Assembly: GCA_012295275.1 (NCBI GenBank)
Contig: CM022669.1
Coordinates: forward strand, 9,114,001 to 9,178,000
Direction of reading: 5' to 3'
Origin: Chrysomallon squamiferum
Lineage: Eukaryota > Animalia > Mollusca
DNA length: 64,000 nucleotides
The stretch's first letter is position 1. The number at the start of each line of letters is the position of its first letter. Below the pieces are notes generated by a model, which was given only the letters and a program-made list of their open reading frames with translations, searched no databases and was not told the origin of the DNA. The position numbers and the translations under genes are program-made. Positions 52,843 through 63,342 of the stretch are shown in pieces.

Positions 52843-55800
52843 ATGAACGTGCTGACTGTTTGTGTCATTATTTTACTGTTCGCAGGTAAACACAAACACA
52901 CACACACACACACACACACACACACACACACACACGCGCGCACACATAAAACACACGCACTGTTTTCTTTCTTTTTTCTTTTTTTTTCCATATTAGTTTG
53001 ATATATAAAACGTTCACCGTTTCTGATAAAATGTATAAAACATTTCTCTTTATATTTATCTTAGTAGTCTTTATTTTTTTTGTTTCACCTTTTTATATTT
53101 AAACAGCTTGGGTGATTTAATACTTTCTTACACCCGAGTTGATGACACATTGCAAAATAGTTTCAACTGGCTTTACTTTTTCTTATCAGTATGAATAATA
53201 CAAACTATTTATTCACTTTAAAATATGGACTGCCTCGTTTGCTACTGCAAAAATGAATTTCGGTAATAAATTAATATTACGTTTTGTCTGTAATAATAAT
53301 GTATTGTCATTAATATTCACAGAATTTTGATTATAATAACAGTTTTATTTGATGACTCAGTTTTAGGAACGGTACCAGATAACAAGAGGTTCAGAAAAAG
53401 TGGTTAGTGTCAATGTTTGTTTTGTGTTATCTCTTTATCTGTCTGTGTGTATGTTATTCTGTCCTTTCTTCATTCTCATTTGTTTCTTCTTCGCGTCTCT
53501 CTCATGTCTTTTTTTCCCTCAATTTCTGTTTATCTCTCTTCTTGTGTCTTTCTTTGTTTCTCTATGAATTTCTTTCACTTTCTATGCTTACGTCTTCACC
53601 TCTTTCTAAATTAACCCTCTCTCTCTCTCTCTCTCTCTCTCTCTCTCTCTCTCTCTCTCTCTCTCTCTCTCTCTCTCTCTCTCTCTCTCTCTCTCTCTCT
53701 CTCTCTCTCTCTCTCTATCTAAATTTGTGATGTTTATAAACGGAAAGAAGCAAGATATGATTCTCTGTTTATTTCAGCACGATTGATTAGACCGAAAAGA
53801 GCAGAGGTTTGTAAACGTTAATGTTTCTTAAAGCAGATTTTCGGATGTTTGTTGAATTCTTAACTGTTTCAAAATTTAATGTCACCAGAACTACTACTAC
53901 TACTACTATTATTATGGGAAAATTATTATAGTGTGTGTGTGTGTGTTTTGTGTTGTGTACAAGCCAGACATGTATTTCAGTGAAATGTCTTATAGTTATT
54001 ATTTAATTCATTTACATTCCTGTTAGTCCTTTTTTATTTTCCAACGTTCTCAACATTATTGTTACTATTCTTCTTCCTCTTCTTCTTCTTCTTCTTCTTC
54101 TTCTTCTTCTTCTTATTATTATTATTATTGTTGTTGTTGTTATTGTTATTGTTATTGTTATTGTTGTTGTTGCTATTATTATTATTATTATTTATCATAA
54201 TTATTATTATGACTTCCGTTCCTACTACTACTGCTAGAACTGTTATTACTTATTTATTTATTTATAATTTTTATTTATTGTTTTTATTATTAGGCAATAC
54301 GTACTTTTTGTCAGTGTGACGAGGGTAACACAGTAAGGTTCACACCCAAATCTTCGTGTCCATGCGGATGTTCTCTTACCTACGATAACGTGTTTCGGTG
54401 CTGTAAATCATGTAAACATCTCGGTGGTTGTTTCCATGGTGACAGTGAAGTTGCGCTAGCAGACGGGTCGGTGTTGAAAATGAAGGATCTTGCTGCTGGA
54501 CGGAAGATTCTGACTGGTGAGTAAATTACGTGTCTCATCGCTAAGTGAAGATCCTGATTATTCGTTTCTAAACTTTTATTTTTTCCCCCCCATCCACTGA
54601 AATGATACCCAGAGGTATCTAGAAATAAAGATGTTACCTGAACCTAACTCGCTGTCAGTACGTGCTTTGTGATGGACGTAACTGTGTGACTGTGAACGTA
54701 ACACGGTGTGTATATGGACGTACCTCAGAATGTTTGTAGAGACGTAATTCAGAATGTTTGTGGACGTAACTCAGAATGTTTGTGGACGTAACTCAGAATG
54801 TTTGTGGACGTAACTCTGGGTGTATCTGAACGCAACTCGGTAGGTTTGTCGAGGAACTGTTTATTTGTGCACATAACTCTGTATTTGAGGACAGCATTTC
54901 AGTGTGTATGTTTTTCTGTGAACCTACCTATATGTATGAATATGTCTATGAACATACCTATATCAGTGTCTTTTGACAGTTCTGTACTTTGTTAATACTG
55001 AGAATTCGCTGATCCGTGAATAACCTTGACCTGTGTAAACTGTTGATGGGTCTACATACTGTCTGTTGACTGCTGGCAGCTAAATGATTAATTGCTGAAA
55101 GTTCTACGTTAATTATTGATTATTCTGTGATGACTGTTGATAGTTTTATGTTGACTGTTGATTGTTCATTATATATATAGTTCTATGTTCTATAGGTGAA
55201 ACAGGATTGAACTGATTGTTTATAGTTCTATGTTATATGAATGACACTAAGCTATGTTGATAGTTCTATGTTATATGAATGACACTAAGCTATGTTGATA
55301 GTTCTATGTTATATGAATAACACTAAGCTATGCTGACAGTTCTATGTTATATGAATGACACTAAGCTATGTTGATAGTTCTGTTATATGAGTGACACTAA
55401 GCTATGTTGATAGTTCTATTTTCTATTAGTGACACTAAGCTATGTTGACAGTTCTATGTTATATGAGTGACACTAAGCTATGTTGACAGTTCTATGTTTT
55501 ATGAGTGACACTAAGCTATGTTGATAGTTCTATGTTATTTGAGTGTCACTAAGCTATGTTGATAGTTCTATGTTATTTGAGTGTCACTAAGCTATGTTGA
55601 TAGTTCTATGTTATATGAATGACACTAAGCTATGTTGATAGTTCTATGTTATATGAATGACACTAAGCTATGTTGACAGTTCTATGTTCTATGAGTGACA
55701 CTAATCTATCACGTGTGATTTGTTTTTAAGTGGAGAATGGTAAGCGGATATTTTCAGAAGTGAAAACCTTCCTAAAACGACAGCCAAACGTGAACGTCAC

Positions 55801-61522: not shown

Positions 61523-63342
61523 ATGAATGTGCTGCCTGTTTGTTTCATTACTTTACTATTCGCAGGTAAATATAAATGTATGCACACACACACACACACA
61601 CACACACACACACACACACACACACACACGTGCGTACACACATACACGTATATAGTTCTGTTTCATTCCTTTTTTTTTTCTTCTCTTCTTTTCTTTCAGA
61701 TCATTTTGATATGTAACGTTATTTCTGTTAAAATTTGAATTATATTTTTCTTTATCCCGGTGAATACAAAAATATCGTGTTGATTACACATTGCAAAATA
61801 TTTTCAGTTCGCTTTAGTATTTCTTAGAAGTGTGAATACGAAATAGAGATACACTCTATTCATTTACAATAAAATTTTGATCCACTTTAAAATATGGACT
61901 GTCCCGTTTGCTACTGTAAAACTGAAGCTACAGTAATAAATTAATATTACGTTTTATCTGTAATAATAATGTATTGTCATTAATATTCACAGAATTTTGA
62001 TTATAATAACAGTTTTATTTGATGACTCAGTTTTAGGAACGGTACAAGATAACAAGAGGTTCAGAAAAAGTGGTTAGTGTCAATGTTTGTTTTGTATTAT
62101 CTCTTTATCTGTCTGTGTGTATGTTATTCTGTCCTTTCTTCTTTCTCATTTGTTTCTATTTGTTTTCTTCTCCGCGTCTCTCTCATGTCTTTTTTTTTAT
62201 TCAGTTTCTGTTTTTCTCTCTTCTTGTATCTTTCTTTGTTTCTCTATGAATTTCTTTCACTTTCTGTGTTTACGTCTTCATCTCTTTCTAAATTAACCTC
62301 TCTCTCTCTCTCTCTCTCTCTCTCTCTCTCTCTCTCTCTCTCTCTCTCTCTGTGTGTGTGTGTGTGTGTGTATATATTATATGTGTATATATGTGTACGT
62401 AGATATATATATGTGTGTGTGTGTGTGTGTGTGTGTGTGTGTGTGTGTAAATTTGTGATGTTTATAAACTCAAAGAAGATAATTCTGTGTTTATTTCAGC
62501 ACGACTGATTGGACGGAAAAGAAGTGTTTGTAAATGTTGATTGTTCAGATTTTGAGATGGTTGCTGAATTGTAACTGTTTCAAAATTTAATGTCACCAGA
62601 ACTGCTACTACTACTACTACTACTTCTACTACTACTACTACTACTACTATTACTACTACTACTACTACTACTACTACTACTACTACTACTACTATGAAAA
62701 CCTGTTTTAAGACCAAGCTAATGCGTCCAGTCTTTATTTCTTTCCTTTCGTCTTTCTTCCGTCGTTTTTTCTTTCTGTTTCTGATGTTGTTTAGTGAACA
62801 CTGAATGACGCGTGAATTCTGGATATGACATGTGCACGTGTGTATGTTGTTCTGTGTGCGCGCTTGTGTGTGTGTGTGTGTGTGTGTGTGTGTGTGTGAA
62901 TGTGTGTATGTTAGGCTGTGTGTGTGTGTGTGTGCGTGCAAGGTAAAATGTTGTATTTATTATTATTTAATTCAGGGACATTCCTGTTAATCTTTATTTG
63001 AAATGCTTAATTATTGTTTTCAGGATTCTCAATATTATTGTTGCTATTATTATTATTATTATTACTACTACCATTACTACTATTACTTTATTTATTTATT
63101 TGTTTATTATTATTATCAGGTAGTACCTTATAATTATTGTGCGTGTACCTTGAATGGGGCGAAAATGTACTCACCCAAAGATTCGTGTGAGTGCGGCTGT
63201 GAAGAAAGTTACGAGACAGAAGATAAGTGCTGTAAAGCATGTGAACACAGTAGTTGTTTCCATGGTGACAGTGAAGTTGTGCTAGCAGACGGGTCGGTGT
63301 TGAAAATGAAGGATCTTGCTGCTGGACGGAAGATTCTGACTG
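61523..63342 (+). CDS. Gene 3: paralogous 8-Cys peptide-Hint gene, 5' part only (continues beyond the window)
   Basis: Exons 61523-61565, 62031-62072, 62500-62525, 63120-63342 give MNVLPVCFITLLFAVLG TVQDNKRFRKSARLIGRKR SVVPYNYCACTLNGAKMYSPKDSCECGCEESYETEDKCCKACEHSS|CFHGDSEVVLADGSVLKMKDLAAGRKILT. Intron phases match gene 2, and the window ends inside the intron-4 minisatellite. Confidence 0.85.

Follow-up and report, generated by a model that had tools for sequence, protein, structure and literature searches.

Lophohog genes are the closest described relatives of the genes reported here. In a chiton, an abalone, and a limpet (Acanthochitona APD15680.1, Haliotis XP_046559732.1, and Patella KAK6177629.1), they encode a signal sequence, a pro region, a short cysteine-rich peptide with a CxCxC...CC core, and a Hog domain carrying Lys at the position of Hedgehog Asp46. 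Conserved Hog domains whose N-termini are short or variable have been described before (PMC2362128), as have Lophohog and limpet expansions (PMC9695228 and PMC5103448). In the vent snail Gigantopelta aegis, automatically named “indian/desert hedgehog-like” proteins (XP_041356242.1, XP_041360543.1, and a further 9 clusters) include 2 with the same 8-Cys frame as the genes reported here; astacin domains or shorter peptides are found in others. Hedgehog itself is alike in its Hint fold, Cys1, S/T-x-x-H motif, and sterol-recognition-like tail.

We analyzed a 64,000-nt stretch of Chrysomallon squamiferum, the scaly-foot snail (GCA_012295275.1, contig CM022669.1, positions 9,114,001 to 9,178,000, forward strand; hereafter, the window), which contains a tandem array of 3 genes, referred to as genes 1, 2, and 3. 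By homology, these are Lophohog-type Hedgehog-related genes, with a predicted secreted peptide followed by a Hog domain. They differ from the described Lophohog genes in an additional N-terminal CxC (8 versus 6 Cys), in diverged paralog loops, and in tandem expansion with probable conversion, none of which is met in the available parts of the Lophohog literature; unlike Hedgehog, they lack the Hedge domain, carry Lys at Asp46 (genes 1 and 2) and a varying residue at position −1, and Cys143 is missing from gene 2. The peptides of genes 2 and 3 are strongly diverged up to the Cys1 codon of the Hint domain, from which point the 2 genes are nearly identical. The explanation that we regard as probable is divergence of the peptides under selection, together with gene conversion that maintains similarity on the Hint side. 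Our best reading, tentative as to the microbe-facing role, is that of secreted, microbe-facing peptides on a homogenized autoprocessing carrier.

Divergence profile across the peptide–Hint exon

Genes 2 and 3 each hold the peptide and the start of the Hint domain in a single 223-nt exon with AG/GT edges (54294-54516 and 63120-63342, respectively). On the Hint side, from the Cys1 codon onward (54429..54516 and 63255..63342), only 1 of the 88 nucleotides is mismatched (0.011; 54454/63280, Ala versus Val). The peptide regions (54294..54428 and 63120..63254; 45 codons and 8 Cys in each) share 15 of 44 residues, 8 of them Cys, when aligned with a one-codon offset, and 54 of the 132 nucleotides are mismatched (0.41). 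An ungapped peptide alignment, with only 2 of the 45 residues in common, was discarded as misaligned. Both the near-identity from Cys1 onward and the approximately 15 common residues before it had been claimed in the original prediction, which was made from the sequence of the window, and both were recovered on recounting. The non-coding background between genes 2 and 3 is 108/996 (0.108), and at this rate the probability of at least 54 mismatches among 132 positions is 4e-19.

Outside the peptide, the signal/pro exons and introns are highly similar, as had been predicted, with 3% to 16% divergence; the proportions of synonymous (pS) and nonsynonymous (pN) differences in the signal/pro region are 0.12 and 0.08, respectively. 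Intron 3 diverges by 0.09 in its proximal and 0.16 in its distal part and is homologous up to the acceptor (alignment score of 110 versus ≤57.5 in 500 shuffles); the non-homology indicated by a first global alignment was overturned by piecewise alignment. Divergence in intron 4 is 0.05 over the first 201 aligned nucleotides (10/201) and 0.11 thereafter. Identity begins at 54427, 2 nt 5′ of the Cys codon, and the final 9 aligned peptide codons form a shoulder, with 5/27 mismatched nucleotides versus 49/105 in the rest. The edge is a divergence peak over the peptide adjoining a dip below background on the Hint side, both of which enlarge the step.

The peptides of genes 2 and 3 have identical Cys spacing (1-13-1-1-9-0-2), unlike the peptide of gene 1; the residue preceding Cys1 is Gly in gene 2 and Ser in gene 3. 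Net peptide charge is +2 in gene 1, +3 in gene 2, and −4 in gene 3; the charge shift described earlier holds for genes 1 and 3, whereas the value of about +2 given for gene 2 had to be raised. Because independent DNA runs carry both peptide–Hint junctions, the edge is not an assembly artifact. Polishing that merged the Hint copies, or a chimeric gene 3, would be compatible with the 2 one-base indels of gene 1, which are possible sequencing errors; however, contigs from the independent runs merge the copies over the same stretch, in addition to showing both junctions, which largely refutes this explanation and leaves it a negligible probability.

Probable selection on the peptide and probable conversion on the Hint side

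For the peptides of genes 2 and 3, the Nei–Gojobori method (NG86) gives dN of 0.62, dS of 0.49, and a ratio of 1.25, and single-ratio maximum likelihood (ML) gives dN/dS of 1.7 to 1.9 with dS of approximately 0.4. Mismatches at codon positions 1, 2, and 3 number 20, 22, and 12 (Fisher p 0.026), none of the codons for the 8 Cys has changed, and among the 15 conserved residues only 2 have a changed codon. A two-class codon model favors a class with dN/dS above 1 (likelihood ratio statistic of 5.7-6.4, p 0.011-0.017; parametric bootstrap 2/64). Peptide dS values of 0.06 to 0.6 are not rejected, whereas values of at least 0.8 are (0.8, p 0.036; 1.0, p 0.011). The combination of dN/dS well below 1 and saturated dS, named earlier as indicating conversion or exon swapping rather than selection, is absent from these data. 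Omitting the Cys codons raises dN/dS to 2.6-2.8 (p 0.06-0.10), a post hoc choice on which we do not rely.

Several results count against positive selection. Over the whole peptide, dN/dS does not significantly exceed 1 (NG86 bootstrap 0.28; ML p 0.2-0.3), the two-class test weakens when confined to the 37 Cys-anchored codons (p 0.06-0.07), and freeing double-nucleotide mutation removes the two-class signal altogether (p 0.44-0.88). Moreover, the tests concern one gene pair under an assumed gap-free alignment, and peptide dS (0.2-0.5) fits a young duplication as well as an older one. The relative rate fitted under the double-mutation null (0.37-0.54) is far above that shown by the flanks, in which the 104 mismatches include 13 adjacent pairs versus 8.3 expected; in the peptide, and in support of selection, adjacent mismatches fall on codon positions 1-2, 2-3, and 3-1 in 14, 8, and 5 cases, respectively. 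We grade the evidence for positive selection on the peptide as moderate, not decisive.

Alleles were compared in 6 of the 8 listed sequencing runs (X1 to X4, X6, and X7), throughout as contigs, which drop rare variants. The gene 2 peptide, for which 3 of 4 runs give full and the fourth partial coverage, has 4 variant sites, all synonymous and located within 25 nt; the gene 3 peptide is identical in each of 4 runs, which come from 3 studies. The nonsynonymous to synonymous ratio is 45:9 among fixed differences and 0:4 among allelic ones (p 0.002), although the 4 clustered silent variants may represent one event. Within the species, the peptides appear to be fixed, and it is between paralogs that they differ; hence, the term “hypervariable” used in the original prediction applies to the paralogs but not to alleles, among which no amino-acid variants were found in the other individuals examined.

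These results also bear on an account without positive selection, whereby an old duplication was followed by drift of the loops under relaxed constraint (dN/dS near 1) and homogenization of both flanks by conversion. The non-significant single-ratio tests and the loss of the selection signal under the double-mutation null are in line with such an account, as are the third codon positions, mismatched in 12 of 44 cases and above the flank rate (p 0.002-0.04). In addition, the last exons of 4 copies have dS of 0.07-0.35, compared with pS of 0.71 at the Hint start of genes 1 and 2, so that 3′ homogenization may be family-wide. Nevertheless, drift of this age is hard to reconcile with the rejection of dS of at least 0.8 and with the near absence of changed codons among conserved residues (2/15, and 0/8 for Cys); relaxed loops should also carry amino-acid polymorphism, of which none was seen in the runs examined, and the adjacent pairs in the flanks fall far below the double-mutation rate that would be needed. 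We consider this account improbable.

On the Hint side, the proximal part of intron 4 diverges less than the non-coding background (10/201 versus 108/996, p 0.003-0.009). The 88-nt Hint stretch alone is explicable without conversion (P 0.02-0.2 under purifying selection), but purifying selection is insufficient for the dip because low divergence extends into the non-coding intron. The likely conversion tract covers the Hint start and proximal intron 4 (54427..54720, with its partner at 63253-63545). At site 54515/63341, both window copies carry T, whereas all contigs of X1, X3, X6, and X7 reaching the site carry A, including both downstream copies of X3 and gene 3 of X7; X2 is mixed, and the merged contig of X4 carries T. 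In one contig of X7, the gene 3 peptide is linked to gene 2 letters at sites 63359 and 63363. Contig ends and depths lead us to infer that the two copies merge from 54427/63253 in X2, X4, and X6, without the Ala/Val difference, and that the downstream contigs of X3 are reciprocal mosaics of the window copies, a pattern that assembly bubble-popping could mimic in part. Below-background divergence together with variants common to the paralogs points to gene conversion on the Hint side.

The available excerpts of PMC3924837 treat shared polymorphism with a divergence peak at a selected target as signs of conversion with selection, as in the human red/green opsins, where divergence is high at the target and low in the flanks. 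The peak in the window differs from that of the opsins in covering the whole peptide and in stopping at a protein-processing site within one exon. Selection and conversion had been offered as alternatives; the data favor both, with selection acting on the peptide side of the edge and conversion on the Hint side. A 38-nt minisatellite lies in intron 4 of genes 2 and 3 (55071-55805 and 63644-64000), its copies in the 2 genes being approximately 80% alike, and might help to initiate conversion or unequal crossing-over. Loose contig ends at 54478/63304 (5 runs) and at 63253 (X2 and X7) reveal further paralogs elsewhere in the genome, with other peptides and Hint starts.

The presence of such paralogs would allow the gene 3 peptide exon to have been copied from a more distant one. 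The distal part of intron 3, somewhat more diverged than other introns, and the very different N-termini of Gigantopelta Hog domains, including astacin, which indicate that cargo swapping happens in the family, fit this scenario. However, intron 3 remains alignable up to the acceptor, the Cys spacing is shared by genes 2 and 3 and not by gene 1, and peptide dS is consistent with the value for the flanks, which makes an exon swap quite improbable. Selection alone, acting after a young duplication with the Hint starts kept alike by purifying selection and chance, appears more improbable still. The single Hint mismatch compared with 3.0-5.9 expected is borderline, and the data do not reject a peptide dS as low as 0.06-0.12, both of which are compatible with this scenario; yet low divergence continues into intron 4, variants are common to both paralogs, and an extreme dN/dS of 35-110 would be required at the variable sites.

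Under the combination of selection and conversion, gene 3 would have arisen by tandem duplication of a unit of approximately 9 kb, after which the inter-cysteine loops would have diverged by positive selection, to be held now by purifying selection. Conversion tracts would begin in the similar Hint and intron DNA and end at peptide mismatches, or be curtailed by selection against overwriting, leaving the edge at Cys1. Taken jointly, these 3 steps strike us as fairly probable.

Family placement, predicted processing, and symbiont-gland expression in a relative

Pfam PF01079 (Hint) matches exons 4, 5, and 7. A search with a profile of 3 exons returned 9 proteins at E ≤0.001, including a Haliotis protein, and searches from it and from a Gigantopelta protein gave 13 matches each, comprising 11 Gigantopelta clusters and proteins of abalones, Patella, and chitons, with a chiton protein named “lophotrochozoan hedgehog-related” among the family matches. 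A weak search for homologs of exon 7 gave none among 35 candidates. The Gigantopelta proteins P0014 and P0024 have the same 8-Cys frame, and the abalone, limpet, and chiton peptides have its 6-Cys version; the Hog exons are 59% to 66% identical to P0014. In a tree of 22 Hog domains, from which 6 fragments, 2 near-duplicates, and gene 3 were left out, genes 1 and 2 fall on a long branch of their own within a clade of 11 rows, the other 9 being Gigantopelta proteins (support 100/99); the sole true Hedgehog in the tree is a long-branch sturgeon Shh, and the deeper nodes are unsettled.

Four Gigantopelta proteins (P0016, P0018, P0019, and P0021) have an astacin metalloprotease (PF01400) fused to the same Hog domain, which suggests that Hog may serve as a general carrier. 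Three peptide plus Hint exons (P0001, P0004, and P0005) on ENA contigs of equal length (409,003 bases), probably one contig, have the same CxCGC...CCxxC frame and exon end and likely represent a second tandem cluster in a relative, and the 146-aa P0006 contains two Lophohog-type peptide plus Hint starts in tandem.

In conotoxins, defensins, legume NCR peptides, and aphid BCR peptides, the pre-pro region and the Cys frame are conserved and the loops vary; the NCR and BCR peptides act in cells that house symbionts. The same architecture is described in the available excerpts on the mussel MgCRP-I peptides. The earlier comparison with conotoxins and defensins holds as an analogy and not as homology: none of 8 peptides matches Pfam, no PDB sequence matches the peptide, the ESM Atlas yielded no usable match, and a fold search with the low-confidence peptide model (predicted local distance difference test [pLDDT] score of 59) gave nothing at E ≤0.001. 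Compared with all 5 of these peptide groups, the window peptides have no sequence match and their alleles are conserved; furthermore, we know of no C-terminal autoprocessing domain on any of these groups.

The Hint chemistry was assessed by comparison with Hedgehog. The structural model of P0014 (pLDDT 70; peptide region <50) matches the Hedgehog Hint structures 1AT0 and 6TYY (E approximately 1e-13; template-modeling score of 0.91 by target length), and the tail past the Hint domain aligns to Hedgehog residues and forms helices in the model. Cys1 and the block B His are retained, the accompanying block B residue being Thr in gene 1 and Ser in gene 2 (S-x-x-H) and many relatives. Two positions depart from Hedgehog. 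Lys occupies the position of Drosophila Asp46 in both gene 1 and gene 2 (exon 5 of gene 2, 55731..55902) and in 18 of 20 mollusc-type relatives, with His in the other 2 and 5 more rows (4 fragments and Shh) left unscored. Cys143, kept in 20 of 20 relatives, is replaced by Asn in gene 2 (exon 7, 57352..57585, which encodes the end of the Hint domain, the sterol-recognition-like tail, and the stop); the position is Cys in gene 1 and in an orphan exon and Ser in an inverted remnant (see below), and the corresponding exon of gene 3 lies beyond the window.

According to the available excerpts of PMC9163320 and PMC13738340, the Hedgehog substitution D303A, at the general base for cholesterol transfer (Asp46/303), blocks cholesterol transfer but not thioester formation, D303H is active, and D303R and others show faster cleavage by dithiothreitol; those of PMC12054796 state that Cys143/400 is required in Hedgehog. 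Judging from the retained residues, the Hog family probably cleaves, but sterol attachment is uncertain because of Lys at Hedgehog's cholesterol-activating Asp46, and release of the gene 2 peptide is doubtful because Asn replaces Cys143, so that this peptide may not be freed from its Hint domain. The original prediction of a peptide released at the autocleavage Cys is therefore borne out as to the presence of Cys1, whereas release itself remains putative. In the proposed pathway, a proprotein convertase would cleave the basic site, the C-terminus of the peptide would be freed by the Hint domain, and transfer of cholesterol would be doubtful on account of Lys46; we think this route probable for the family as a whole but unlikely for gene 2.

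An acidic peptide, such as that of gene 3, is atypical of membrane-active antimicrobials. The G. aegis annotation table lists 20 hedgehog-like models, exclusive of 7 pathway rows (3 HHAT, wntless, 2 patched, and SUFU). Thirteen of the 20 are enriched in the symbiont-housing esophageal gland, with log2 fold changes of 2.0 to 8.6 (PMC7895826, Supplementary Data 1 and 2), against a gland-enriched background of 1,782 of 21,438 genes (8.3%; binomial p 4e-10, which treats paralogs as independent although they are not; 12/15 contigs). The 2 models resembling true Hedgehog are outside the gland list. Nevertheless, the identifiers in the Gigantopelta table are not tied to the 8-Cys proteins, and the tables for the scaly-foot snail contain just 1 hedgehog-named gene in the gland list, at 2.4-fold (PMC7142155 supplements, 12 of 13 files). 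The word “hedgehog” occurs 0 times in the main text of three vent-snail genome papers, including PMC7895826, and a literature search, with most subscription journals outside its scope, turned up no publication dealing with selection or conversion in these peptides or with their function. That the peptides are microbe-facing is a tentative reading, and their action on bacteria in the symbiont-housing gland, the last step of the proposed mechanism, would be similarly tentative.

The CxC, CxCxC, and CC motifs resemble those of metallothioneins. This resemblance would fit a different possibility, namely that the peptides are host-directed signaling ligands or cysteine-rich metal or sulfur binders, with the gene 2 peptide perhaps remaining on a dead Hint domain. 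Such roles would suit the 6-Cys peptides of abalone, limpet, and chiton, with their nearly fixed spacing, as well as the lack of Cys143 in gene 2, and Hog proteins are classically ligand precursors (available excerpts of PMC2362128). However, a varying external target would better suit the reversed charge and the rapid change of the loops from paralog to paralog, a secretory signal favors disulfides over free thiols, and a relative shows enrichment of family genes in its symbiont gland. We view a ligand or binder function as rather unlikely, if worth keeping in mind.

Organization of the locus and implications

Exon models are based on GT/AG edges and homology only, and the genes are on the forward strand. 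Gene 2 has an open reading frame (ORF) of 281 aa over 7 exons, in the order hydrophobic N-terminus, pro region, peptide, Hint domain, and helical tail, with 82 residues before the Hint domain. Exon 1 (52843..52885; 43 nt, phase 1) encodes the ATG and a hydrophobic, signal-peptide-like sequence, judged by inspection; exons 2 (53367..53402, with 1 of 36 nucleotides unlike gene 3) and 3 (53778..53806) encode the pro region, which ends in a furin-type RPKR site, and exon 6 (56632..56738) encodes part of the Hint domain. In gene 3, the signal-peptide-like exon 1 (61523..61565), exon 2 (62037..62072), and exon 3 (62500..62525; pro region ending in RKR-S) precede the peptide, and the remainder of the gene runs past the window end.

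Gene 1 (46623..49807) encodes a 40-codon 8-Cys peptide, with tentative 5′ exons at 46623-46664, 47041-47091, and 47314-47342 and further candidate exons at 48180-48387, 48908-49080, 49256-49362, and 49584-49807. Its exon 5 (48908-49080) has one surplus base and is out of frame, with Cys143 and the block B Thr retained in the gene, and its candidate first exon is 42 nt long versus 43 nt in the others, an apparent second one-base indel; gene 1 is apparently either a recent pseudogene or affected by assembly errors. The second copy of the tandem unit (58681..64000) repeats 49540-55720, that is, the last exon of gene 1, the spacer, and gene 2. It includes an orphan last exon with an early stop (58724-58942), which is a copy of the last exon of gene 1 and has Cys143. 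An inverted gene remnant is found on the reverse strand (43174..43763); it comprises a last exon that has Ser at Cys143 (43174-43395) and a degraded exon 6 (43674-43763).

The window is AT-rich (GC content of 0.27-0.37 in 2-kb windows) and contains many microsatellites. A dispersed repeat of approximately 200 to 280 nt, which resembles a short interspersed element in appearance and has no Rfam match, occurs in both orientations (34404-34686, 41305-41407, 51995-52281, and 58045-58298); a 134-nt inverted copy of gene 1 intron 4 (22787-22920; source 48780-48902) is 87% identical and lies 26 kb away; and a tandem repeat of approximately 41 nt is located between genes 1 and 2 (50703-51053). An Rfam scan of the window gave 0 matches, as did Pfam searches with 20 non-repetitive ORFs out of the 233 listed.

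Lophohog genes have been on record since 2008, and we found no printed function for them. The locus offers Lophohog a testable role and chemistry, namely a diversifying Cys-rich cargo, a conserved Lys at Asp46, and a family-wide gland enrichment that passed unremarked in a published supplement. More speculatively, and with considerable doubt on our part, the Hedgehog autoprocessing domain may have become an interchangeable carrier in peltospirid vent snails, its cargo being disulfide-rich peptides, along with astacin proteases, that control intracellular symbionts. This would be an animal counterpart of legume NCR peptides, with the Lys46 Hint domain either freeing the cargo or coupling it to a non-cholesterol partner. 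In addition, the locus is a clear-cut example of a peak in divergence, under gene conversion, whose end falls at a site of protein processing. It bears on how vent snails control bacteria, and the peptides are short enough to be made and assayed.

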